From Kiritimatiellia bacterium (GTDB lineage: Bacteria > Verrucomicrobiota > Kiritimatiellia > CAIVKH01): a stretch of DNA of 35,539 nt. The stretch is from positions 1 to 35,539 of the forward strand of contig JBMTVS010000001.1 in the NCBI GenBank assembly GCA_049451655.1, read 5' to 3'. The notes under the pieces were generated by a model, which searched no databases, was not told the origin of the DNA, and saw only the letters and a program-made list of their open reading frames with translations. Position 1 is the first letter of the stretch. Every line of letters starts with the position of its first letter. This document shows positions 1,445 through 35,449 of this stretch, piece after piece. A program made the position numbers and the translations under genes.

Positions 1445-2719
1445 TTAAGAGCGTGAACCCTGACGAGCGGCCGCCTCATACACAGCGCGCGGGTTAACGC
1501 CAGCTTTAGCGGCCAAGCGGCGACAGTCATCCATTTCCGGCGCGCGGGTAATGTCTTCACCTTGCCAGGAACCAATTTTTACGCGGACTTCACCAAAGGG
1601 CGTGGTCACAGTTTCAAAGCGCCGCTGTAATTTTGTTCGCCTGACTGGAGTCTCGCGTACCCCGAAGGTCGTGCTGCCGCGAAAGATAATATCCAGCATG
1701 CGTTCCCGGTCACCGGGATGGCACAGCACGGAAAACACCATGCCCGAGCGTTGCTTTTTCATGGTGACCGGCGCGCAGGTGACATCGAGGGCGCCCGCCG
1801 CCAACACATCATCCATGAGCGCGCCAACCAACTCCGGCGTGGTGTCATCCAGGTTGCAGGCCAGTAACAGGGCTGTATCGGATGTTTCGCCCGCATGGTC
1901 CTCAACGTCATAAAGCGATGCTCGCAGCAGGTTGGGCCGGTGGTGAAGTTTACGTTGGCCCATGCTGTAAGCGATTTTCTTAACGACCGAACCGGCAGGG
2001 GGAGCCTCTGCATTACGCCATGTTGCAATCAGCGCAGCGCCCGTGGGCGTGACCAGTTCGAAAGGTTCATCGGTTTGCGTTACGGGAAGTCCGGCGGTAA
2101 GGGCGAGGGTGGCAGGGGCAGGATTGGGATAAACACCATGGGCGCAACGAATGGTTCCTTGTCCTTGAGGAATGGGCGAAACGGAGATCGAATCAACACC
2201 CAGCGCATGAAGCGCCCAACAACTTCCGACAATGTCCAGAATCGAATCGTCTGCGCCCACCTCGTGAAAATGAATATCATCCACCGGCACGCCGTGAATC
2301 GACGCCTCGGCTTCACCCAGTCGCTGAAAAACCGCGAGGCTGGCGCTTTTGACCGGACCGGGCAAATCCGCACGCGCAATCAGTTCCTTGATGCTGGATA
2401 ATGACCTGTGATCATGGTGGTGATGATGGTCGTGATGTCCATCCTCTGCTGACTCATGATGATGGTGTGCGTGATCATGAGTATGATCATGTGGATGGGC
2501 AGGCTGGGCGGCTTGCTCCTGCCCTTCTATCTCAACCCGCATGCGAACGCCGGTAATCCCCATGCTTTCTGCATGTGTAAGCTCAAGCTTGAAGGGCGCG
2601 GTACCGAGTTTTTTGAGCGCGTTAGTCAACTCGTCAAGCGGTGCCCCCAACTCCACCAGCGCACCCAGCATCATGTCGCCGCTGGCTCCGCCCACGCATT
2701 CGATGCGCAGGTGTTTCAT
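1445..2719 (-). CDS. larC: Nickel-pincer cofactor biosynthesis protein LarC (DUF111/UPF0272 nickel insertion protein)
   Basis: N-terminus MKHLRIECVGGASGDMMLGALVELGAP is the LarC/DUF111 signature. An internal His-rich tract (HPHDHTHDHAHHHHESAEDGHHDHHHHHDH) fits nickel handling. Single uninterrupted 424-aa ORF. 4-nt start/stop overlap with larB (2716-2719). Confidence 0.85.
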   Translation of the reverse strand: MKHLRIECVGGASGDMMLGALVELGAPLDELTNALKKLGTAPFKLELTHAESMGITGVRMRVEIEGQEQAAQPAHPHDHTHDHAHHHHESAEDGHHDHHHHHDHRSLSSIKELIARADLPGPVKSASLAVFQRLGEAEASIHGVPVDDIHFHEVGADDSILDIVGSCWALHALGVDSISVSPIPQGQGTIRCAHGVYPNPAPATLALTAGLPVTQTDEPFELVTPTGAALIATWRNAEAPPAGSVVKKIAYSMGQRKLHHRPNLLRASLYDVEDHAGETSDTALLLACNLDDTTPELVGALMDDVLAAGALDVTCAPVTMKKQRSGMVFSVLCHPGDRERMLDIIFRGSTTFGVRETPVRRTKLQRRFETVTTPFGEVRVKIGSWQGEDITRAPEMDDCRRLAAKAGVNPRAVYEAAARQGSRS

Positions 2720-3474
2720 GTTCCTCGCACTTCCTCGGCGGCACGGTTGATAATCGCGGCGGCAATTCCAGCGCCAAAACCATTATCAATATTCACCACC
2801 GAAATGCCGGCGGCACAGGAATTGAGCATGGCCATCAGGGGGGCAATGCCGCCCAGGTTGATGCCGTAACCGACGCTGGTCGGCACCGCAATAAGGGGAC
2901 GATCAAGCATTCCGCCCAGCACCGAGGGCAGGGCTCCTTCCATCCCGGCCACACAAATGACCGCGCGGCAGGTTCGCAGCATCTCGATGTGGGGCATCAA
3001 CCGGTGCAGGCCGGCCACCCCGCAATCGCTCACCCGCGACACATGCGCACCCGCCCACTCGGCGGTAAGCGCGGCTTCATCCGCTACCGGAAGGTCTGCA
3101 GTTCCCGCGCTCACCACCGCGACATGACCGATGCGCTGGTCGGCTGGTTTCATGGCGGCCGTAATGCAACGGGCACGATGATGATACACCGCATCCGGAT
3201 GCGCGGCCTTGACCACCTCATACACATGCGGCTCGGCCCGCGTGGCCAACACCGGTTCACCGGTCTCTTTTAGCACGCCAAATATATGCGCGACCTGCTC
3301 CGGGGTTTTGCTTGGACAATAAATGACTTCCGGAAAAGCACGACGCCGCGATCGATCGGTATCAATGCGCGCGAAACCAAGATCGCGAAACGCATCTTTT
3401 TTCATGTGGGCGGCCGCATCAGCGGGCGTCAGTTCACCCTTAGCCACTTGTTCGAGTATTTCTTCCAGCTTCAT
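2716..3474 (-). CDS. larB: Pyridinium-3,5-biscarboxylic acid mononucleotide synthase LarB (PurE-like)
   Basis: Motifs RRAFPEVIYCPSKT, VVSAGTADLPVADEA, CGVAGLHRL, AGMEGALPSV, PTSVGYG and NSCAAGISVVNIDNGFGAG match the LarB/NCAIR-mutase-like family. Adjacent to and overlapping larC. Confidence 0.85.
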   Translation of the reverse strand: MKLEEILEQVAKGELTPADAAAHMKKDAFRDLGFARIDTDRSRRRAFPEVIYCPSKTPEQVAHIFGVLKETGEPVLATRAEPHVYEVVKAAHPDAVYHHRARCITAAMKPADQRIGHVAVVSAGTADLPVADEAALTAEWAGAHVSRVSDCGVAGLHRLMPHIEMLRTCRAVICVAGMEGALPSVLGGMLDRPLIAVPTSVGYGINLGGIAPLMAMLNSCAAGISVVNIDNGFGAGIAAAIINRAAEEVRGT

Positions 3475-17984: not shown

Positions 17985-18061
<77 letters not shown>

Positions 18062-18078: not shown

Positions 18079-19491
18079 CTAGTAGGCGTTACTACGGGCA
18101 AAAAATGTCCGGGCTATGATTTTGAAGTCGAGGGAGAGCGACCAGTTCTCCAGGTAGTACAAATCATAGTTCACCCGGTCGCTGATACTGGTATTACCAC
18201 GGAGGCCGTTTACTTGCGCCCATCCCGTGACCCCGGGTCGCGAAAAATGCCGCCACATGTAGCGACTGATATCCTCCTTGAACTGCTCGACGAAATGCGG
18301 ACGCTCCGGTCGAGGCCCGACAAGGCTCATGTCACCTTTCAGCACGTTCCAAAATTGCGGCAACTCGTCGATATTGTGCGCGCGCAGGAACGCTCCGATC
18401 CGGGTGCGGCGCGGATCATTTTCAACGGCCCAAACCGGACCGGTTTTGTCCTCGGCATCGATACGCATGGTGCGCAGCTTGTAGATGTTGAAGCGGCGAC
18501 CCTTTTCACCGCAACGCTCCTGCTTAAAGAAAATTGGACCGGGAGATGTGATCTTGATCAGCAAGGCGGCTACCGCAATGACCGGTGCGGAGAATAAGAG
18601 TCCAGCAGCGCTGCCTACAATGTCCTCCATCCGCTTGGCCACGCGGTTCCAGAATAGATCCAGCGGCCACTTGGCGGTGCCAAGAATAGGGATGCCGTCG
18701 ACATTCTGCACTTCCATGTTAATCGTCAGCAGCCGGAAAAGATCGGGTACGAAATTGAACGCGATCATGGATCGCTCGCATTCCAGGATGATCTCCGCCA
18801 TGCGGTTGTGTGGTAAATTTCCGGGACTGGAAAGAATGACCTGATTGACTTGGCCGCCCTGAATCACACGATTCAAATCATACACCGAACCCTGGATAAG
18901 TTCGCCGGGGATTTCAGGGTCGCTCGTCCCATCACCCATGCTCAAAAAGGCGACTACCCGCGTGCGGAGTCGTGGTTCGTTTTCTAACGCATCACGTAGA
19001 CGTGCCGAGACTGTATCCGCACCAAGGATGACAACATGATTTGAGATGCGCTTACCTCGAGCGAGTAGAATTTCCACCCGGAACAAGATGGCCCGGACGA
19101 TCAACAAGAAAACCGAAATCGTTACAAAAGAAAGGGCGATGGTGGTACGTGACAGCGGGGGGGTTGTGCCAATCGCGAAGGCGAGGGCGGTGGCGAGAAG
19201 TATGCCGAGTCCGGTCGCTCTGATCAGTCGCGGAATGCGTTCGCTGAAGGTGCCGAGCTGAGGTCGTGTGTAAAGTCCCAGGGATTGAAAAATGAAGCAA
19301 AAAAGTAACGTCATCACGATGCCGGCATAAACGTAAAGATCGGCCGGGGGAAGCGTTTCGTCCTTGAGAGGAATCCACCCGCTGTGAAAGCGAATCCAGA
19401 CCGCCAGCTCAAAACCGGTGAAAACCGCGAGGGCATCGCCCGCGAGCCCCAGGAGCCCGCACATCACATCAAATGTGTCGCGTCTTTTCAT
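18079..19491 (-). CDS. Undecaprenyl-phosphate hexose-1-phosphate transferase (WbaP/EpsB-type exopolysaccharide priming glycosyltransferase)
   Basis: Four to five N-terminal TM helices and a central Rossmann-like segment ([13 protein letters not shown]). C-terminal bacterial sugar-transferase domain has motifs [57 protein letters not shown]. Confidence 0.85.
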
Positions 19492-19508: not shown

Positions 19509-20432
19509 TCAGCCTTGACTCGCCAGAAACCGCTCCGCTTCCAGCGCGGCCATACAACCGGTGCCGGCGGCGGTGATGGCTTGCCGGTAATGAGGGTCCT
19601 GTACGTCGCCCGCAGCATATACGCCCGGAATAGTGGTTTTGGTGTGATGGGTAACCAGGTAGCCGCTTTCGTTCATTTCGAGTTGGCCCTCGAAGGGCTT
19701 GGTGTTGGGCTGGTGACCAATGGCCACGAACAGCGCTTTGACGTCCAGATCGGAAAGCTCGCCGGTTTGCGTGTTCTTTAATCGCAACCCGGTGACTTCG
19801 TTTTGTTCAACGCCGAGCACCTCATCGACCGTGGTGTTCCAATGAATCTTTATTTTCGGATGATTCATAACGCGGTCAGCCATGATTTTAGAGGCGCGAA
19901 AGGCATCGCGACGGTGGAGAATATGCACGGTAGAGGCAAAGCGGGTGAGAAAGATCGACTCCTCCATGGCGGTGTCACCACCACCGACTACCGCGACGGG
20001 AACATTACGATAAAAAGCGCCGTCACAGGTAGCGCACGAGGTTACGCCACGCCCGATCAACTTTTGCTCCGAAGGGATACCAAGATACTTCGCGCTGGCT
20101 CCGGTGGCGATAATCAGGGTGCGGGTTTCCATGGTGTTACCGTCGTCGGTGGTAATCTTTATTGGATTTGAACTAAAATCGGCCTTTTCGACCATGGCAT
20201 AGGCGAAACGGGTACCAAAACGCTCGGCTTGCTTACGCATACGGTCCATCAGTTCCGTGCCGTCCACGCCTTCGGCAAAGCCCGGGAAGTTTTCCACTTC
20301 GGTGGTGGTGGTGAGTTGTCCGCCCGGCTGCAGGCCCTCCAGCACCAGCGGATTCAGGTTGGCGCGTGCGGTGTAAATGGCAGCGGTCAATCCCGCTGCT
20401 CCGGTACCAAGAATAATCACGTTTTCGGTCAT
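19509..20432 (-). CDS. trxB: Thioredoxin-disulfide reductase
   Basis: MTENVIILGTGAAGLTAAIY (FAD GxGxxG), redox-active CATCDG, NADPH site VVGGGDTAMEE. I use the ATG at 20432, which is preceded by GAGGAAAG. The 40-codon upstream extension in the ORF track (to 20552) has no homology logic. Confidence 0.9.
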   Translation of the reverse strand: MTENVIILGTGAAGLTAAIYTARANLNPLVLEGLQPGGQLTTTTEVENFPGFAEGVDGTELMDRMRKQAERFGTRFAYAMVEKADFSSNPIKITTDDGNTMETRTLIIATGASAKYLGIPSEQKLIGRGVTSCATCDGAFYRNVPVAVVGGGDTAMEESIFLTRFASTVHILHRRDAFRASKIMADRVMNHPKIKIHWNTTVDEVLGVEQNEVTGLRLKNTQTGELSDLDVKALFVAIGHQPNTKPFEGQLEMNESGYLVTHHTKTTIPGVYAAGDVQDPHYRQAITAAGTGCMAALEAERFLASQG

Positions 20433-20640
20433 GTCTTTCCTCGTTGAATCAGGCGTGTAATGTAATCGGCCTGGCTTATATCGTCCAGCTAACCCTGCTG
20501 TTTTCAGGACGTCAATTTTTGCGGGTAACGAGATGACCAGACTTGATTGCAATTCAACTACCTAAAGGACTTGACCCGGCCATCTGATGTTCGCAGTCTT
20601 TTTCCGGGCCAGTGCTTCAGCAAAGCTGAGTTGATGGCTC

Positions 20641-20788
20641 GATCAACCTAACGGAAGTCCGTGAGAATCGGACGCGGTCGCGCCGCTGTATACGGTTACG
20701 ACCTCCCGCAATGTCACTTCGCGCCGGTCGCGCGGGGGAAGACAAGGGAGGAAGATTTGAAGCCGTGAGCCAGAAGACGAGGTTGATC
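20641..20788 (+). promoter_or_regulatory. Cobalamin (B12) riboswitch aptamer
   Basis: P1 is a 9-bp helix, GATCAACCT (20641-49) with AGGTTGATC (20780-88). Core is AACGGAAGTCCGTGAGAATCGGACGCGGTCGCGCCGCTGTA (consensus GGGAA..GGTG.GAA.CC...GCGG.CCCGCCACTGT). It also has GTCACT...GGGGAAGAC (consensus CCACTG...GGGAAGGC) and the B12 box GAGCCAGAAGACGAGG (consensus AGCCAGGAGACCTGCC). It lies 49 nt upstream of the 20838 ATG on the same strand. Confidence 0.8.
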
Positions 20789-20837
20789 AAGAACGATAAC
20801 CTGAAAGCTCCCGCGTAAGGGGCAGAGAGAAGAAGGC

Positions 20838-21455
20838 ATGAAAAAGCAATTTCTAGCCGCCGCGCTTGCGGTCGGCGTCACCACCGGATCGCACCTCCAC
20901 GCCATGATTACCGATTGGGCCAATTTAGATGCCTCTTTCGGCACGGGAGCCAATCGGTCCGCGTTGATCATCGACTGGAATGATGGCAGCGCTCAAGACA
21001 CCTTGTATTGGGGGTTTTTCTGGGACACAGCCCCCGGGGGCGGCACCGTCGCGGATTTGATTACGGCGGTCTCCGCCGCGGATGGACGCCTTACCTTCAA
21101 CCTGACGGATTTCGGTAGCGGCTTGGGTTTGTTTGTGGACGGCATCGGATTTGATGCCGGGCAGAATTCTAGTTATGCAGATCCGGGAGATCACTACCAG
21201 GACCGCAACGGGGGCTGGACAGATACTTTTGTAAGTTGGGAGGGACACAGCACAAGCGGCACCTGGGCTACTTCAGCCAGCGGCATCTCCAGCACGGCAA
21301 TACAGCATGATTACGCCTACGGCTTCAGTTGGAACAACAGCGGAAGCTGGCCCGGTGATGCGCCAGGGGTTGTGCCCGAGCCGGCTTCCCTGGCCTTGAT
21401 GGGTCTTGGTTTGGGGTTGTTCTCGGCGCGACGTTTAATGCGGAAAACCGCTTAA
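20838..21455 (+). CDS. Secreted PEP-CTERM-anchored protein of unknown function, under cobalamin-riboswitch control
   Basis: Signal peptide MKKQFLAAALAVGVTTGSHLHA. C-terminal VPEPASLALMGLGLGLFSARRLMRK is a PEP motif plus TM helix plus basic tail (PEP-CTERM sorting signal). GAAGAAGG Shine-Dalgarno. The mature ~150-aa Gly/Trp/Ser-rich domain is not recognised with certainty. Confidence 0.8.
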   Translation: MKKQFLAAALAVGVTTGSHLHAMITDWANLDASFGTGANRSALIIDWNDGSAQDTLYWGFFWDTAPGGGTVADLITAVSAADGRLTFNLTDFGSGLGLFVDGIGFDAGQNSSYADPGDHYQDRNGGWTDTFVSWEGHSTSGTWATSASGISSTAIQHDYAYGFSWNNSGSWPGDAPGVVPEPASLALMGLGLGLFSARRLMRKTA

Positions 21456-22240
21456 TTCGCGGGCGCCTCGAAGCGTTCGCGCTCTGCAACATCGCGAACG
21501 CGCAGGAGGGTTTTGGTTTTCTCCGGGTAGCGCAGAAATTCCAGATCCTTGATCACCCAACGATCGTCGATTTTTTTAAAGCTTTTCACGTCCATCCGGC
21601 GCAATCGATCGCCCTCGCGGCTGTAGCCTTCGGCGCGCAGGACAATGCCGATCTTGCTGTCGACCCATAACTGCATGGTGTCGAAAGCGGATGCCTGACC
21701 TTCGGGTGCGGGCAGTTCGATGATATCGCAATGGCGGCCACGCACTTTTTCCTCGCCGGTCTTTTTTCCGCCCGGCCACCAAAGGAACGACAGACTCAAG
21801 TCCAGCCAGGTGACGTCGGTTTCCTGGATGGCCTGATGCAGCGGCGGCAGCGGCGCGGAGCGCAGGGGGTCGCCGGCGAGGTAGTTGTAGTCGGGCCGGG
21901 CAGGATCGTTCCAGGTGATAGCGAGGTGTTCGAGCGGCGCGCCGAAGGCATCACGGATGGTGTAGCGGGCGGTAGCGACCTCGGCCTTCCAGTCGAGCAC
22001 CATCTCGACGCGGAAGGTTTGCTCGACGCGCCCGCGCTCGTCGAGGCGTTGCAGGTCGCCCTGAATGACCAGCGGAATATCCGGCAACGCGGCAATGACG
22101 GGCTCGAGAAGGGTAGCCGCGTTCGAAAGGGGCGCGAAGGTGAGGAACAGCAGCCAAGCCGCCTGCGCGAAGTGGAGGGCTCCGCTCTGTCGGAGCCGTG
22201 AACATGGCGAGAACATGAACCGCGCGAAGCTCCTCATCAT
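21452..22240 (-). CDS. LolA-like outer-membrane lipoprotein-sorting family protein (periplasmic)
   Basis: Signal peptide (AAWLLFLTFAPLSNA). The C-terminal half (GEEKVRGRHCDIIELPAPEG...MQLWVDSKIGIVLRAEGYSREGDRLRRMDVKSFKKIDDRWVIKDLEF...KTKTLLRVRDV) follows the LolA_like family pattern. Start overlaps the lon stop by 4 nt. Confidence 0.55.
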   Translation of the reverse strand: MMRSFARFMFSPCSRLRQSGALHFAQAAWLLFLTFAPLSNAATLLEPVIAALPDIPLVIQGDLQRLDERGRVEQTFRVEMVLDWKAEVATARYTIRDAFGAPLEHLAITWNDPARPDYNYLAGDPLRSAPLPPLHQAIQETDVTWLDLSLSFLWWPGGKKTGEEKVRGRHCDIIELPAPEGQASAFDTMQLWVDSKIGIVLRAEGYSREGDRLRRMDVKSFKKIDDRWVIKDLEFLRYPEKTKTLLRVRDVAERERFEAPAN

Positions 22241-30921: not shown

Positions 30922-31896
30922 TTATCCGCCGCCCAGCCACCAGCCGGTTACCTCGACCTGATTACTTACAGCGGAAGGCCCCACGATTTTCTCGTAGGCG
31001 TTGGTGCGGTAATCGAAGGTGCCGGAAGCACCATTCAAATCGATTTCGCCATCCGCCATCATGGTGCCCCAGATGTTAAAGGTGGAAGAGCCGTTAGCCC
31101 GGATGTCGCCGGTGACATAAAGAATGCCGTTGATGTTGCGGGTGCCGGAACCACGGAACTCTACATCACCGTGAACAATGGTAAAGGTATTGCTGTTGGG
31201 GGCTTCGTTTCGTTTGTAAACGATGTCGCCATAATGTTCGATTAAAAGGCCCTGATCCACGGCCGCATCCCGCAAGATCTGGAATTCGGGGCTGTCCAGG
31301 GTGGGGAAAGGCTTCAATTCCCAGGTGATGACCTGACCCGATGGTAGATTCTCCTCGATATCGGACTGATTTAAAGCGGAAATCGCCCCGTCGATACTTC
31401 CCCAACTTCCATTCACAACAAAATTGTTGTTGGCGTGAAGCGTTGCACTTTCGTTGATGGTCGGTGTGCCGGACAAGACGATTGTTCCGTCGGTGAACAT
31501 ACTGAACTCTGACCAATTCGGAAGGTTTGACCGAACAGCATCCCGCAACCCAACACCGATCGTAGCGCTGCTATCTTCGTAAACACCCACGACGGACAAG
31601 GTGCAGCGATTGCTATTATTATTCACGCTGATCGTATAAGTCCCGCCCCCGAAATTTGCTTCTTCACCGTCCATGGTCAGTCGCTCGTCGAAATCAGCGA
31701 TCAATCGCTGAATAGCCTGATTCGCACCCGCCTCGGCAATGGCCCGGGCGCGAATGGCATCGGTCATGGTTTCGGATTGCCGGAGCATGTTGGCCGAAAA
31801 GGCATAGAACCCCCCGGTGGTAAGCGAGACGATGAAGATGATGATCATCACGGTCACCAGGGCCGACCCGGATTGTTGGATGTTGGATGCTCTCAT
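30922..31896 (-). CDS. PilX/GspK-like minor pseudopilin (PilX_N-type N-terminus without Glu+5)
   Basis: QQSGSALVTVMIIIFIVSLTTGGFYAFSANMLRQSETMTDAIRARAIAEAGANQAIQRL matches the PilX N-terminal domain pattern. The C-terminal part is Gly/Asn/Thr-rich and beta-helix-like (GDVEFRGSGTRNINGILYVTGDIRANGSSTFNIWG). Confidence 0.6.
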   Translation of the reverse strand: MRASNIQQSGSALVTVMIIIFIVSLTTGGFYAFSANMLRQSETMTDAIRARAIAEAGANQAIQRLIADFDERLTMDGEEANFGGGTYTISVNNNSNRCTLSVVGVYEDSSATIGVGLRDAVRSNLPNWSEFSMFTDGTIVLSGTPTINESATLHANNNFVVNGSWGSIDGAISALNQSDIEENLPSGQVITWELKPFPTLDSPEFQILRDAAVDQGLLIEHYGDIVYKRNEAPNSNTFTIVHGDVEFRGSGTRNINGILYVTGDIRANGSSTFNIWGTMMADGEIDLNGASGTFDYRTNAYEKIVGPSAVSNQVEVTGWWLGGG

Positions 31897-31911
31897 GATG
31901 CTGCTCCTTAC

Positions 31912-34002
31912 TTAATTACGCGGAATAATTTCCGTAAACGCCGAAGCGGTGATGCGCTTGGGGCTGCCAATGCCCATCGCCACATCCTTGTAGACCGTCA
32001 AATCAATGGTGACGCCTTTCATGAGCGGAGCGTCATTAACCAGAACCTCGTAGACGCCCTGGGATGGTCCCGTCTGAAATTTTCCGGTTATCGGGGCAAA
32101 GCGCTCAGCGCCCTCCCACGCCATGATGATGTCGTGCAACTCGGGCGTTGCCGTCTCTTTATTACCTGCATTTACGCCCACACCCAAAGTTGCCTTGACC
32201 TGAAAATAGCGCCCGTCGATTAGTGGAGTGCTGTTATTCATCACATCCACCCAAACAATACCGTTCAGATTATTACTGGAGCCGGCCCTGGCCTGAACTT
32301 GCAAGGTTGGGCTGGGCGTAGTAAATCCTGTGGGTATCGTTCGCGTCCATTTGATCGACGAATAGTCCGGAGAAAGTCCCGTGTCGATAACCGGCGACAC
32401 ATAGACACCTTGCGGTGCATGGCCCGCGCGGACGTGCTTAAGCGCGTAAACCGCGTTTGTTCTCACCCAGCTACTTCCGTCGTAGACATACATATCCCGG
32501 GCGGATGTGATTTCATCATTGGTCCATGCACGGACAGACAGATTCGTCGTGTCTTCAATTTCAAATCCAATGATGTATGTATTGGTGCGCTCAATTAAAT
32601 AGCCCAGCGGCTCGCTGATCTTGGTGCCGGTAAACCAACCCGTGTCATCATCCCACCCGTCAAAACGAAAGTCGCGCTTGGTGCCGGAAATATATTCATA
32701 GGGATTGGCGCCTGGATCAGCAGAGAGTCTGCTCATGGCGATGTATGCATTTTTAATCTGGGCCTGTTTATTACTGGCAGCCTCAAATGTTGCCCAGACA
32801 TTCGTACCGGTAAACCTGATCCAGCCCCCGTCAAAATTATTGGTTAAATCGTCTCCCCGCAATATGACACGAACATCGGTCTCGGTGAGCATGCTGATAT
32901 AGGCGGGTGAATCAACATGGCGGGTTTGTTCTTCCGCCTGCCAGATGAGACCATTTCCCTCAAGTTCCAAACCGAAAGTGCTGGCGGTATAGTCGTCAAC
33001 GAGGATGCGCTCCAAGCGTTCAAGCGAGTCCGCGGTTCCGTTGAAATTTCTTTCCTCCCAGCTGTCATTCTGGAAATTCAGGGTAAACGTCTGCGCGGCG
33101 GCATTGGCTGGAAAATTCAGCCGCGAATTTCCACTCCAGGTTTCGTTACTTCCCATATTTTGAGCCGCCGGCGTGGCTCCGGAACTGGATTCAATCGCCA
33201 TCCACTCCGCTTCGAGACGGTTTCCAGACGGGGTCAAATTGAACCAGTCGGCCGCCAGTTGATAGCGCCCAATGTCGCCACCAGCGGAGGTGAATGTGAT
33301 GGTGTTGGTGCCGGTGAGTATGCGGGCGGAACCCAGATAGATTTCTTCGATGCTTTCCGATGCCGCGCCAAAGTCGACCGTGTTCGTGGTGATGTTAATT
33401 TGCCAGTCGACCAGGTTGGAGATGAGGGTGCGGGTGGCGCTGGTGTCGCCGTTGGACGCGGATGCCCCGTCGCCATCCTCGGAAACATCGGCGAGCTGCT
33501 GCTGGCGGGTGGTGTCGTTATCGACCCATGATGAGAATTCCGTGCGACGCACCTCGAACTGGTCGTTGGTCCAGAAGTGATAGACCACGGTGGTATCCCA
33601 CTCGATCTCGCCATCGGCATTGATGGCGTCTGCGCCACCTGAAATCACCGGAAAGCTGATTGCGGTATAGGGCGGGTTGTCGGGAGGGTGCAGTAGAATG
33701 CGTTCGCGCGAGGTTTGCCAGAGGTCGTGCCGCAAGCGGTCGAGCAGGATGCGGGCGTCCATATCCAGTTCATTCTGATTGGTGATCAGGCGGTCTGCGC
33801 GCAGCATGTAGGCGAATCCTGAAACCGCCGCGCTGGTTACAATGCCCAGCAGAGCGGTGGCGGCTAACATCTCGATCAGGCTAAATCCTCCAACCATCTT
33901 TTTCTTTGCATTTCGTGGCTCACCGAAATGCTTGCGGGAACGTAAATTTCCGTCGTGCCCTCGCGCAAATCGACCTCGCCCGCTGCTCAATAACCCGGTC
34001 AT
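31912..34002 (-). CDS. Giant (696-aa) prepilin-type protein, GspJ/PilW-like N-terminal module with large C-terminal extension
   Basis: Prepilin cleavage/methylation motif GGFSLIEMLAATALLGIVTSAAVSGFAY. A following segment (LDMDARILLDRLRHDLWQTS...TTVVYHFW...EVRR) resembles GspJ/PilW. A further ~500 aa of beta-rich sequence includes a CBM-like stretch (RLEAEWMAIESSSG...TFTLNFQNDSW). The ATG at 34002 overlaps the upstream gene's stop (ATGA). ATG at 33897 is an alternative that gives a very short leader. Confidence 0.65.
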   Translation of the reverse strand: MTGLLSSGRGRFARGHDGNLRSRKHFGEPRNAKKKMVGGFSLIEMLAATALLGIVTSAAVSGFAYMLRADRLITNQNELDMDARILLDRLRHDLWQTSRERILLHPPDNPPYTAISFPVISGGADAINADGEIEWDTTVVYHFWTNDQFEVRRTEFSSWVDNDTTRQQQLADVSEDGDGASASNGDTSATRTLISNLVDWQINITTNTVDFGAASESIEEIYLGSARILTGTNTITFTSAGGDIGRYQLAADWFNLTPSGNRLEAEWMAIESSSGATPAAQNMGSNETWSGNSRLNFPANAAAQTFTLNFQNDSWEERNFNGTADSLERLERILVDDYTASTFGLELEGNGLIWQAEEQTRHVDSPAYISMLTETDVRVILRGDDLTNNFDGGWIRFTGTNVWATFEAASNKQAQIKNAYIAMSRLSADPGANPYEYISGTKRDFRFDGWDDDTGWFTGTKISEPLGYLIERTNTYIIGFEIEDTTNLSVRAWTNDEITSARDMYVYDGSSWVRTNAVYALKHVRAGHAPQGVYVSPVIDTGLSPDYSSIKWTRTIPTGFTTPSPTLQVQARAGSSNNLNGIVWVDVMNNSTPLIDGRYFQVKATLGVGVNAGNKETATPELHDIIMAWEGAERFAPITGKFQTGPSQGVYEVLVNDAPLMKGVTIDLTVYKDVAMGIGSPKRITASAFTEIIPRN

Positions 34003-34421
34003 GGTTCGATCTCCCTTAACAGTGTCGAAACCGTGGTCGTCGAGAATCCGGCTTGCCGCGGCAAGGGCACACCTACCATCACGTCAATTTTGGCCACGCT
34101 CGCTATGCTGTTCCAATTCGTCTCCAGCACCGTGGTCCTGCGAAAACGCAACGTGCCAGCCCCCGTGCCCAATTCATCCACTTGCGTTTCGGATTCAACC
34201 AAGCTGCCAACCTGGGATAACGGGAGGTTTTTGGCTCGCTCGATTTGGTTATTCGCAATCAAGGTCCCCACGTAGTTGTCGTGAGCATACTTGCGCATCT
34301 GCATCGACATACTGATCGCTGAATATCCCCCGGCCAAACCGATGGCGAGTAACGTCATGGCAACCACGACTTCGACCAGCGTCATGCCAGAGCAGGCTGA
34401 ATTTGTGTTGAATCGCTTCAT
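33999..34421 (-). CDS. Small prepilin-type minor pseudopilin (GspI/PilV-like, 140 aa)
   Basis: MKRFNTNSACSGMTLVEVVVAMTLLAIGLAGG is a basic leader plus G|MTLVE methylation motif plus hydrophobic helix. I start it at the ATG at 34421. The upstream part of the 235-aa ORF (to 34706) has no coding logic and overlaps larE. Confidence 0.7.
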   Translation of the reverse strand: MKRFNTNSACSGMTLVEVVVAMTLLAIGLAGGYSAISMSMQMRKYAHDNYVGTLIANNQIERAKNLPLSQVGSLVESETQVDELGTGAGTLRFRRTTVLETNWNSIASVAKIDVMVGVPLPRQAGFSTTTVSTLLREIEP

Positions 34422-34512
34422 CTGTATGTTTGAGCAGCAGAAAGCATGCCTTGTCTTCAAAGTGCCGAAGTTCAACATAAATAAATACCAAAACAGCTCA
34501 ATTCCCGCAATC

Positions 34513-34541
34513 ACGCGAAAATGTTTCGCAAAAACGCGAAA
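34513..34541. promoter_or_regulatory. Operator-like repeat cluster ACGCGAAA-atg-TTTCGC-aaaa-ACGCGAAA
   Basis: GCGAAA (34515-20), its inverted copy TTTCGC (34524-29) and GCGAAA (34536-41). The two ACGCGAAA direct copies are 21 bp apart (two helical turns). The cluster lies in the 170-bp divergent region between the pseudopilin operon and larE. Confidence 0.35.
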
Positions 34542-34576
34542 CGCTATGCCTTCCCTCTGGTTGATTCGCCATTTCA

Positions 34577-34585
34577 TGCTATAGT
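34577..34585 (+). promoter_or_regulatory. Extended -10-like element TGCTATAGT 6 nt upstream of the larE ATG
   Basis: ttcaTGCTATAGTcccgcgATG with the ATG at 34592. No Shine-Dalgarno in between. Confidence 0.4.
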
Positions 34586-34591
34586 CCCGCG

Positions 34592-35449
34592 ATGGATAAA
34601 GACGTAGACAATGCGTTAACCGCCGTGGAATGGCCACCCGGCCCCGCCGAAAAAATGGCGGCACTGGAACAGCGTTTTGCCGGTATGGGCTCGGTGATTG
34701 TGGCATTCAGTGCCGGGGTGGACAGCACCTTTCTCGCCGCCATGGCGCACAAGGTGTTGGGCGACAAAGCGTTAATTGTTACCGCAACCTCGCCCTCCTT
34801 CCCTGCGCGCGAGCTCGAGGAAGCCGTCGAGCTGGCCCGCTCACTGGGCCTGAACCACCGCGTGATTCAATCCAACGAGTTGGCCAATCCCGACTACGCG
34901 AACAATCCCGACAGCCGCTGCTACCACTGCAAGACCGAGCTCTACGGCCTGCTGCGAGATATTGCCGACCGCGAGGAATATGCCCGCATCGTGGATGGCA
35001 CCAATGTCGATGATATGAACGATTATCGGCCCGGTGCCCTGGCCGCCCGCGAGAAACGGGTCGAGAGCCCGCTGCAGGAGCTCGGCTTCACCAAGGCCGA
35101 CATCCGCGAAGCCTCACGCCTGCTCGGACTCAAGACCCACGACAAACCTGCTTTCTCGTGCCTCGCCTCCCGCTTTCCCTACGGCATCGAAATCACCCGC
35201 GAGGCCCTCAGCCAGGTCGAGCGCGCCGAGGATGGCCTGCGCGAACTTGGGTTCAGCGAATTGCGCGTGCGGGCCCATCAAGACGTCGCCCGCATCGAAC
35301 TGCCCGCCGACCAGATTGCCCGCGCCGCCGCGCCTGAGATGCGCGATAAAATCTCCACCCTGCTCAAGGGCTGCGGCTTCCGCTACGTCTCGCTCGATCT
35401 GCAGGGTTACCGCCGCGGGAGTTTAAACGAAGTTTTTAAGCGGGTGTAA
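34592..35449 (+). CDS. larE: NPN-cofactor sulfur transferase LarE (PP-loop ATP pyrophosphatase family)
   Basis: PP-loop VAFSAGVDST, and conserved SRCYHCKTELY and AFSCLASRFPYG motifs typical of LarE. ~280 aa. ATG at 34655 (MAALEQRF...) is an alternative start. Confidence 0.8.
   Translation: MDKDVDNALTAVEWPPGPAEKMAALEQRFAGMGSVIVAFSAGVDSTFLAAMAHKVLGDKALIVTATSPSFPARELEEAVELARSLGLNHRVIQSNELANPDYANNPDSRCYHCKTELYGLLRDIADREEYARIVDGTNVDDMNDYRPGALAAREKRVESPLQELGFTKADIREASRLLGLKTHDKPAFSCLASRFPYGIEITREALSQVERAEDGLRELGFSELRVRAHQDVARIELPADQIARAAAPEMRDKISTLLKGCGFRYVSLDLQGYRRGSLNEVFKRV

Follow-up and report, generated by a model that had tools for sequence, protein, structure and literature searches.

A cobalamin riboswitch precedes a candidate B12-capture surface protein with a predicted transcobalamin beta-domain-like fold in a Kiritimatiellia bacterium

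Most microbes need vitamin B12 and few make it, and capture systems therefore shape microbial communities. To our knowledge, the accessory surface binders of B12 characterised to date come almost exclusively from gut Bacteroidota (BtuG, BtuH, BtuJ and BtuK). The window analysed here, a 35,539-nt stretch of DNA from a Kiritimatiellia bacterium, contains a cobalamin riboswitch followed by a gene for a 205-aa protein with a PEP-CTERM tail, and it raises the question of what such a protein does when B12 is scarce. The original prediction was that it is a surface-anchored corrinoid binder. The locus is organized as follows.

19509-20432 (-): trxB (TIGR01292, 405 bits), divergent from the 205-aa ORF
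20607-20798 (+): cobalamin riboswitch aptamer RF00174 (cmscan, full-length model, positions 1-189)
20807-20837 (+): putative expression platform, consisting of a conserved hairpin and a purine-rich SD stretch
20838-20903 (+): signal peptide MKKQFLAAALAVGVTTGSHLHA, residues 1-22, followed by M (read from the sequence)
20904-21368 (+): mature domain, residues 23-177, the proposed corrinoid-binding module (AlphaFold, Foldseek and family comparison)
21369-21455 (+): PEP-CTERM sorting signal VPEPASLALMGLGLGLFSARRLMRKTA and stop codon (PF07589, TIGR02595)
21452-22240 (-): LolA_like gene, convergent, its stop codon overlapping that of the 205-aa ORF

Comparison with Rfam using cmscan assigned the aptamer to RF00174 with a score of 68.4 bits (E 5e-15), well above the gathering score of 31.5, and both the conserved core and the B12 box are present. 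The predicted cobalamin riboswitch was thus borne out by the covariance model. The 148-nt element described originally corresponds to the P1-to-P1' core (20641-20788), to which the Rfam model adds a 5' hairpin. In the centroid fold, P1 is formed by pairing of GAUCAACCU (20641-20649) with AGGUUGAUC (20780-20788); GAGCCAGAAGAC, the B12 box, occupies about 20768-20779, and the other riboswitch blocks quoted before are also in the sequence. The aptamer ends (20798) 39 nt before the ORF, and the earlier figure of 49 nt is correct for the gap between the P1 3' strand and the ATG. The Rfam scan identified no second riboswitch in the window. Downstream of the aptamer, the hairpin GCUCC-CGCGUAA-GGGGC (20807-20823) is directly followed by the SD stretch AGAGAGAAGAAGG (20824-20836), and the hairpin stem and a GAAGGA-type SD stretch were kept in all five clade leaders compared. 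Since no intrinsic terminator was found between the aptamer and the ATG, transcription termination was rejected as the mode of control. From what is known of cobalamin riboswitches, we infer that control of the ORF is translational and exerted via an L5-L13 kissing loop.

The translation of the ORF (20838-21455, + strand) matches that quoted in the original prediction. The signal peptide lacks a lipobox cysteine, and its cleavage site is placed by prediction. The C-terminus combines the PEP-CTERM motif, a hydrophobic helix and a basic tail expected of an exosortase substrate, and it scored above the curated cut-offs of both PF07589 (26.0 bits, threshold 20.7) and TIGR02595 (24.5 bits, threshold 16), in agreement with the signal peptide and anchor described earlier. 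No exosortase gene was recognised among the window ORFs read by eye or scanned. The gene arrangement was also as described, with trxB divergent and the LolA_like gene convergent with overlapping stops. A by-eye reading of the translated window ORFs recognised no btuB, btuFCD or cob/cbi genes, as had been noted, and no BtuB, BtuFCD or ECF-type transporter was seen in the window or in the few related loci that were annotated.

A word-indexed search with the mature domain returned five clusters only. The large family to which it belongs emerged from a profile search, and the reading of the product as an orphan protein was dropped. The family comprises 884 clusters at 50% identity, with 515 hits in GTDB species genomes; in the GTDB scan an alignment of the narrow clade found no relatives and one of 49 sequences was too diverse for patterns, while a 10-sequence alignment worked. 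The PEP-CTERM motif was found in 86 of 94 family members. A Pfam search of these 94 members detected nothing beyond PEP-CTERM at E values up to 10. The mature-domain family is covered by no Pfam or NCBIfam model, except that PF28005, precomputed on the relative P0203, may already describe the domain.

The association with the riboswitch extends through the family. All close homologues (P0002-P0005, four clusters; loci L001-L006) have RF00174 upstream with a conserved aptamer, in genomic contexts that otherwise differ. A chance match was ruled out by the E-value of the riboswitch and by the finding of the riboswitch-gene pair at all homologous loci. In the wider family (L007-L085, from Armatimonadota, Planctomycetota, Verrucomicrobiota, Kiritimatiellia, Desulfobacterota, Cloacimonadota and others), a riboswitch of the cobalamin clan was located upstream, on the same strand and within 2.5 kb, at 60 of the 79 loci, and at none was one found on the opposite strand. 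For the first 60 loci, the upstream same-strand region makes up 21.8% of the sequence space scanned. The upstream riboswitch was missing within the flank fetched at the other 19 loci; one apparent negative, L012, showed a riboswitch of 113.6 bits once the flank was widened. The check on orthologues therefore supported the original prediction. Some Desulfobacterota loci also have a c-di-GMP riboswitch beside the family gene, a possible sign of a connection with surface or biofilm physiology.

The original prediction had also noted a resemblance of the mature domain to DUF4430 and the transcobalamin beta-domain. The AlphaFold model of the protein (pLDDT 88.1, pTM 0.76) begins with a helix of lower pLDDT (residues 2-15), followed by strands at 39-46 and 55-62, a helix at 71-81, a hairpin at 85-91/98-105 and three further strands. 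This predicted structure, as distinct from a solved one, is a beta-grasp whose single helix is followed by an inserted beta-hairpin. The first 19 Foldseek matches in the PDB were the beta-domains of intrinsic factor, transcobalamin and haptocorrin together with 3u7z, a bacterial protein that we take to be of DUF4430 type. Their probabilities were 0.93-1.00, with modest E-values (0.009-0.2), and the target-normalised TM-score against the isolated transcobalamin beta-domain was 0.66-0.69. The succession of strands and helix agrees with that of the transcobalamin-like clade in the soluble-ligand-binding beta-grasp (SLBB) superfamily as defined by Burroughs et al. 2007 (PMC1796856); polysaccharides and DNA are among the other ligands that the SLBB fold binds (PMC1796856). 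At the sequence level the resemblance was not detected. Pfam matched the window protein to PEP-CTERM only, with no DUF4430 or DUF4465 at E values up to 10; NCBIfam gave no link to known B12 binders; phmmer and profile hmmsearch against PDB sequences had no match; and hhalign against the human and bovine transcobalamin beta-domains gave a probability of 0.25%. The local hhalign alignment paired TVADLI with STVEDVL and FVSW with FWQLL, as expected by eye. If the by-eye pairing holds, the conserved segments DFG..LGLFVDGIGFD and W..TF..W would be expected to face the ligand, like their counterparts in transcobalamin. Judged from the model, the likeness to transcobalamin and DUF4430 is a match of fold, as opposed to demonstrated family membership. 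The comparison with BtuH that had been suggested was not productive: neither the BtuH fold (7BIZ) nor the BtuG/BtuK propeller was among the fold matches, and a propeller was seen solely in the relative P0038, fused to the domain. Assignment to BtuJ (DUF4465, PF14717) was likewise contradicted by the lack of a Pfam match, the beta-grasp model and the absence of BtuJ from the top 50 fold matches.

The gene is alone in this genome, as originally described, but its relatives are normally found in cassettes of two to four genes, usually together with a jelly-roll protein and a pseudopilin of DUF1559 type. A paralogue whose C-terminal module (C-module, about 300 aa) is conserved was present at 41 of the 79 loci and a prepilin-type H-X9-DG/DUF1559 protein at 56 of them. 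The C-module was modelled confidently as a beta-sandwich (pLDDT 93.6) with weak CBM32/discoidin and FN3 matches, and its interpretation as a toroid like the transcobalamin alpha-domain was rejected on that basis. No homologue of the partner gene or of the pseudopilin was detected in the window at E values up to 10, and the pseudopilin cluster of the window (30922-34706) did not match the cassette pseudopilin at the same limit. Several relatives carry the domain in fusions. P0038 has two copies joined to a DUF5074 propeller, for which the BtuK1-CNCbl structure 9S6C is a match (E 2.6e-18; PMC13616437). P0010 joins two copies to an alpha/alpha toroid of SCO2321/SQHop_cyclase type (E 1.5e-18 to NF053823, 'SCO2321 family membrane protein'), a layout of beta-like domains plus toroid that is the two-domain logic of transcobalamin. 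Three multi-copy members, P0028 (E 2.4e-17), P0010 (2.5e-5) and P0045 (2.7e-3), match NF040672, the 'SCO2322 family protein', on the motif W-x-Y-W...G..R.L.DGD.DGW, all below its curated cut-off of 85 bits; the window protein has no match to it. In the literature that could be searched, nothing was documented on the function of the SCO2322 family, and nothing relevant was found on DUF5074, or on DUF1559 in combination with a riboswitch.

The computational checks suggested with the original prediction largely support its interpretation. With its riboswitch, its predicted fold and relatives that are usually preceded by a cobalamin riboswitch too, the window protein is a strong candidate for a new bacterial B12-capture protein. 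As an explanation of the locus as a whole, a one-gene response to B12 limitation based on surface corrinoid capture appears to us the probable one. According to this model, intracellular cobalamin at high levels would be bound by the riboswitch, and the conserved hairpin next to the SD stretch would be stabilised, probably via the L5-L13 kissing loop, blocking translation initiation. Under B12 scarcity, the 205-aa protein would be made and exported by Sec, and exosortase would cut it at the PEP-CTERM signal, leaving it at the cell surface. The mature domain, with its divergent transcobalamin-beta-like fold, may then capture extracellular corrinoids and hand them to an uptake route encoded outside the window. 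The original prediction considered that a B12-regulated, exosortase-sorted binder had not been described. Literature searches combining transcobalamin-like proteins with riboswitches, or PEP-CTERM with cobalamin riboswitches, found nothing relevant, but the idea is less unprecedented than it seemed. Secreted bacterial transcobalamin-like SLBB proteins, with planctomycetes among the carriers, were predicted to scavenge B12 (PMC1796856), DUF4465/BtuJ binders from Verrucomicrobiota and Planctomycetota have been shown to bind it (PMC13398666), and in Poriferisphaera corsica KS4 the family gene KS4_03300 adjoins a second riboswitch operon that encodes a PEP-CTERM-tailed DUF4465/BtuJ-type protein.

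The predicted surface location, the riboswitch and the cassette could also be reconciled with a protein that binds no corrinoid itself and is instead a B12-regulated structural, docking or adaptor part of an uptake apparatus that includes the C-module and the DUF1559-type pseudopilin, where it might, for instance, anchor the actual binder or interact with the exopolysaccharide layer. The frequency of both partners at the family loci is in line with such a role, as are an exopolysaccharide-priming glycosyltransferase gene located 1.1 kb upstream of the window riboswitch and the SLBB domains of Wza and ComEA, which are thought to bind polysaccharide (PMC1796856). However, the best fold matches are in the cobalamin-carrier branch of SLBB and not in Wza or ComEA, and the domain is directly fused to known or suspected B12-binding domains. 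Furthermore, the window gene is partnerless yet retains its own riboswitch, which argues for a function of its own. We regard the adaptor role as unlikely. The coincidental placement of an unrelated PEP-CTERM gene behind a riboswitch that is an orphan, or that acts on the divergent trxB, is far less credible still. The riboswitch and trxB share the 405-nt intergenic region that separates trxB from the 205-aa ORF, but the aptamer shares its strand with the ORF and trxB is on the other one; regulation of trxB was rejected for this reason. The riboswitch-gene pair also recurs in loci without trxB and, among distant family members, at 60 of 79 loci, and the comparative data effectively refuted this explanation.

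Cobalamin riboswitches also govern cobalt transport and B12-independent isozymes, and the protein could accordingly be a B12-sparing factor that binds another ligand needed when B12 is scarce, such as cobalt, a corrinoid precursor, a lower ligand (e.g., DMB) or some other metabolite. In support of such a ligand, some archaeal transcobalamin-like SLBB proteins were suggested to scavenge a distinct metabolite (Burroughs et al., PMC1796856), and 3u7z entered the PDB under the description 'putative metal binding protein'. On the other hand, a reading of the mature domain showed no metal-binding motif, no cysteine and few histidines, and the family co-occurs with BtuK-like and BtuJ-like B12 binders, not with cobalt transporters. 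The binding of another ligand is, in our opinion, improbable, more so than the adaptor role, and corrinoid capture remains the preferred reading.

More tentatively, the window gene could be the minimal form of an unrecognised B12-acquisition system in which riboswitch-controlled, exosortase-sorted surface proteins act with DUF1559/H-X9-DG pseudopilins. This is possible, if on balance doubtful. Such a system would include transcobalamin-beta-like binders, the new jelly-roll C-module family and, in some genomes, DUF4465 proteins; it would range over Planctomycetota, Verrucomicrobiota, Kiritimatiellia, Armatimonadota, Desulfobacterota and Cloacimonadota, and would work in place of, or ahead of, the BtuB-BtuG complex. 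If true, it would provide the first function for part of the very large DUF1559 family and make the transcobalamin beta-domain fold an ancient, widespread bacterial B12 binder not confined to Firmicutes. Of the loci sampled, about three quarters are coupled to cobalamin riboswitches, in environmental phyla whose B12 uptake is poorly understood, and the predicted fold links the family to the B12 carriers of animals. The co-regulated partners, the jelly-roll module and the DUF1559 pseudopilins, could reveal a new uptake route. The domain is short, soluble and directly testable, and culturable hosts include Poriferisphaera corsica KS4, Pirellulimonas nuda, Desulfosarcina cetonica and Limisphaera.

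The known proteins closest in predicted fold are transcobalamin, intrinsic factor, haptocorrin and DUF4430, all with a beta-grasp and a hairpin after the helix, but sequence similarity of the window protein to DUF4430 or transcobalamin is not detectable and its family's domain is larger (about 150 aa versus about 100). The transcobalamin-like SLBB clade is secreted or surface-located, as is predicted for this family, and like it has paralogues paired within operons; the two kinds of fusion found here, with an alpha/alpha toroid and with a beta-propeller, were already described for the clade. The two differ in their anchors (PEP-CTERM, dockerin or T9SS tail here, LPXTG in the clade), in their hosts, which here are Gram-negative environmental phyla, and in their gene partners, which are jelly-roll and pseudopilin genes here and CbiO/CbiQ-like (ECF-type) transporter genes in the reports on the clade. 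Cobalamin-riboswitch control further sets the family apart from transcobalamin/DUF4430 systems. In that respect it approaches the Bacteroides surface binders BtuG, BtuH, BtuJ (DUF4465) and BtuK (PMC13616437, PMC8941943, PMC13398666). [quoted passage not shown] Nonetheless, both groups consist of accessory proteins for B12 limitation that are riboswitch-repressed and surface-exposed (by prediction here), with several paralogous binders (candidate binders here) per locus. They meet in P. corsica, where the BtuJ-type gene lies in the operon neighbouring a family gene, and the fusion of a small domain to a propeller is found in BtuGH of Bacteroides as well as in P0038.

A cmscan of the whole window recovered the cobalamin riboswitch as an end-to-end match to the RF00174 model at 20607-20798 on the forward strand, scoring 68.4 bits (gathering score 31.5, E 5e-15); it is one of two Rfam matches above threshold. 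In the centroid fold, 20641-20649 is paired to 20780-20788, and the 148-nt element originally proposed at 20641-20788 corresponds to the P1 to P1' core of this match. The features around it are as follows.

17985-18058 (+): tRNA gene (Rfam RF00005, 68.2 bits)
18079-19491 (-): exopolysaccharide-priming polyprenyl glycosylphosphotransferase (TIGR03025, 435 bits), adjoining the tRNA gene
20807-20823 (+): leader hairpin, conserved in clade leaders
20824-20836 (+): GAAGGA-type Shine-Dalgarno stretch, directly after the hairpin
20838-21455 (+): window ORF, 205 aa, next ORF after the riboswitch

The ORF translates to the same 205 amino acids as in the original prediction. It begins with what reads as a Sec signal peptide lacking a lipobox, and its PEP-CTERM C-terminus passed the curated thresholds in both Pfam and NCBIfam. 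The neighbors were also as described: trxB (19509-20432, TIGR01292 at 405 bits) is divergent, and the convergent gene, whose stop codon overlaps that of the ORF, is LolA_like. Therefore, the gene stands alone behind the riboswitch. Two JGI metagenome contigs coding for an identical protein keep the order trxB, gene, LolA-like gene. No BtuB, BtuFCD or ECF genes were seen in the window, where the other ORFs were mostly read by eye and in part HMM-scanned, in agreement with the claim that no btuB or btuFCD lies nearby, nor were any seen among the few related loci annotated. Polyprenyl glycosylphosphotransferases like the one listed are often linked to PEP-CTERM/exosortase systems. Elsewhere in the window, LarC- and LarB-looking translations for nickel-pincer cofactor synthesis were noticed by eye at 1445-3474 (-), as was a LarE-like ATP-dependent sulfur transferase near the opposite end, at 34592-35449 (+).

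No terminator was found between the aptamer and the ATG. A hairpin of the form GCYCY-CGCRNRA-GGGGC is common to all five clade leaders compared, each followed directly by a GAAGGA-type Shine-Dalgarno stretch, and the CGCG loop of the window hairpin is complementary to a CGCG in L5. In characterized cobalamin riboswitch structures, the ligand stabilizes an L5-L13 hairpin kissing loop that masks the ribosome-binding site. Taken together, these features led us to propose that B12 would repress the window gene at the level of translation.

A word-indexed search of 5.8 billion proteins identified four other clusters with 52-79% identity to the window protein. RF00174 matches (38-75 bits) lie directly upstream of the homologue at all close-relative loci, L001 to L006 (L003 is cut at the contig end), and the flanking genes differ between contigs. 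Two neighbors recur at these loci. One, of about 565 aa, matches nothing in Pfam; the other, hereafter the pseudopilin, is prepilin-type (N_methyl, DUF1559, H-X9-DG) and about 238 aa long. They are located downstream of the homologue on the same strand in L002 and L004-L006, and form a convergent operon with a separate cobalamin riboswitch in L001 and L003. The N-terminus of the 565-aa protein is a copy of the window protein's domain (L003 copy against the window ORF, phmmer E 1e-10).

The family extends well beyond these relatives. A profile of the five close sequences, run exhaustively against 1.84 billion cluster representatives, matched 884 clusters at an E threshold of 1e-3, of which 251 also reach 1e-10, and a GTDB scan with one genome per species yielded 515 confirmed relatives. 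In most members, which are 190-250 aa long, the domain sits between a signal peptide and a PEP-CTERM tail, and PF07589 was the sole Pfam domain in 86 of 94 sampled members; others carry a dockerin or T9SS tail, or two to five domain copies. Source databases name them, if at all, 'hypothetical protein' or 'PEP-CTERM sorting domain-containing protein'. One member, P0203, has a precomputed match to PF28005.1, an accession newer than the local Pfam copy, and PF28005 may be a recent model already covering the domain. The 79 loci kept from the scan come from Armatimonadota, Planctomycetota, Verrucomicrobiota, Kiritimatiellia, Desulfobacterota, Cloacimonadota, Hydrogenedentota, Marinimicrobia and others.

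Rfam scans of these loci, with flanks up to 2.5 kb, placed a cobalamin-clan riboswitch (RF00174 or RF01689) on the strand of the family gene and upstream of it in 60 of 79 (15/20, 16/20, 19/20 and 10/19 by batch), downstream on that strand in L073 and L075, and on the opposite strand in none. In the first 60 loci, 21.8% of the scanned sequence space lay upstream on the same strand, yet this portion held all 50 riboswitch matches; the aptamer ended less than 500 nt from the family gene in 25 loci, and elsewhere a gene for the pseudopilin or for the larger partner (C-module protein) intervenes. Some negative loci reflect short flanks: L012 had no match within 2.5 kb, and a wider flank revealed a riboswitch of 113.6 bits heading an operon of a pseudopilin, a 493-aa C-module protein, the family gene and a second family gene. 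The expectation that orthologues lie behind B12 riboswitches thus held, distant paralogues included, and the link to B12 extends across the family.

As a separate observation, the family gene has a c-di-GMP-I riboswitch beside it in some loci of Desulfobacterota and Thermodesulfobacteriota. Two of these, L073 and L075, carry a tandem in which the c-di-GMP riboswitch immediately precedes a cobalamin riboswitch, an arrangement that suggests combined control by B12 and c-di-GMP.

L017 2072-2194: c-di-GMP-I site
L057 1856-1977: c-di-GMP-I site
L085 1-59: c-di-GMP-I site
L073 3904-3988 and 4079-4320: tandem
L075 1180-1306, 3646-3738 and 3820-4076: sites including the tandem

The cassette partners are candidates for a downstream corrinoid acceptor. 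The conserved C-terminal module of about 300 aa of the larger partner (C-module) defines a family of 442 proteins (E cut-off 1e-5), each annotated as 'hypothetical', for which there is no Pfam or NCBIfam model; where precomputed Pfam annotation shows an anchor, it is PEP-CTERM or dockerin. Its AlphaFold model is very confident (pLDDT 93.6) but matched CBM32/discoidin jelly rolls and FN3 domains only weakly. Of the 79 loci, 41 have a C-module and 56 a pseudopilin within 2.5 kb of the family gene. A Kiritimatiellia MAG, L043, contains the nearest homologues of the partners. In Planctomycetota and Verrucomicrobiota, DUF1559 forms a very large paralogous family with no assigned function. It was also observed that the C-module family shares cobalamin-riboswitch control with the window protein's family, and that the pseudopilin genes of those 56 loci are inside cobalamin-riboswitch operons. 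Representative genes are listed by locus.

L001 5670-7367 (-): C-module
L004 1106-2815 (+): C-module
L022 1185-2468 (+): C-module
L089 4503-5984 (+): C-module
L001 4961-5677 (-): pseudopilin
L002 6437-7147 (+): pseudopilin
L037 1444-2415 (+): pseudopilin
L088 8827-9645 and 13277-14107 (+): pseudopilins
L089 3642-4481 (+): pseudopilin

Three pseudopilin-like genes cluster in the window itself at 30922-34706 (-). One product is PilV/GspI-like, one is GspK-like, and one is 696 aa long and has a prepilin N-terminus; none matched the cassette pseudopilin, even with E allowed up to 10.

The confident AlphaFold2 model of the window protein (94-sequence alignment; pLDDT 88.1, pTM 0.76) places, after the signal helix, strands 32-35, 39-46 and 55-62, a single helix 71-81, a hairpin 85-91/98-105 and three strands. 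Foldseek ranks 1-19 against the PDB were solely intrinsic factor, transcobalamin and haptocorrin, plus 3u7z, with probabilities of 0.93-1.00 and modest E-values of 0.009-0.2; from rank 20, probabilities fell below 0.2. Compared with 3u7z and with the human transcobalamin beta-domain in isolation (5NP4, 5NO0), target-normalized TM-scores were 0.66-0.69; 3u7z comes from Ruminococcus gnavus, carries the deposition title 'putative metal binding protein', and is taken here to be DUF4430-type. A beta-hairpin inserted after the helix characterizes the transcobalamin-like clade of the SLBB (soluble-ligand-binding beta-grasp) superfamily (Burroughs et al. 2007, PMC1796856), and the modeled topology is that of this clade. 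Sequence methods gave no confirmation of homology to transcobalamin or DUF4430. Multi-copy members matched NCBIfam NF040672 (SCO2322 family) below its curated cut-off (P0028, E 2.4e-17; P0010, 2.5e-5; P0045, 2.7e-3) on the conserved W-x-Y-W...DGD-x-DGW motif, a weak bridge. The proposed resemblance is therefore retained for the predicted fold, and DUF4430 membership is not claimed.

Domain and gene context is a further pointer to B12. In the T9SS protein P0038, two domain copies are followed by a DUF5074 propeller that matches PDB 9S6C (E 2.6e-18), which is BtuK1 with bound cyanocobalamin (PMC13616437). PF16819 propellers co-locate with 40% of about 900 DUF4465 proteins, the main genomic cluster of that family, and B12 binding by DUF4465 (BtuJ) proteins from several phyla was shown experimentally (PMC13398666). 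In P0010, two domain copies precede an alpha/alpha toroid (SQHop_cyclase_C; SCO2321 family, E 1.5e-18), the same pairing that sandwiches B12 in transcobalamin and one already known for bacterial members of the clade (Burroughs et al., PMC1796856). The complete genome of Poriferisphaera corsica KS4, a cultured planctomycete (L088, CP036425.1 6668-14378), has two adjacent riboswitch-headed operons with a total of five PEP-CTERM proteins and two pseudopilins. One encodes a 257-aa PEP-CTERM protein with a weak C-module profile match (E 9e-8), the family protein KS4_03300 and a pseudopilin; the other encodes PEP-CTERM proteins of 364 and 333 aa, the latter with a weak C-module match (E 2e-8), a DUF4465 protein with a PEP-CTERM tail, a pseudopilin and a Fer2_BFD protein. 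This strain is a culturable organism where the system could be tested. Separately, two riboswitch operons of planctomycetes were noticed to encode, after the family gene, 535-aa PQQ_2/BamB-like beta-propellers that recall those of BtuG and BtuK (L013 3170-4777 and L025 2466-4073, both +).

The feature is real, and B12 capture is its candidate role: when B12 is in short supply, the protein would undergo export and exosortase sorting, and would capture corrinoids at the surface. New aspects are a divergent subfamily missed by current models, its anchoring through PEP-CTERM, dockerin or T9SS in environmental phyla that are Gram-negative, riboswitch control across the family, and the jelly-roll and pseudopilin cassette; we found no literature description of any of these. 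The transcobalamin-like group was predicted in 2007 to include bacterial B12 scavengers, planctomycetes among them (PMC1796856). In putative function, the window protein is similar to the riboswitch-repressed surface-binder relay of Bacteroides (BtuG, BtuH, BtuJ and BtuK), but it differs from those proteins in fold and anchor; its likeness in predicted fold is to the transcobalamin/DUF4430 beta-domain.
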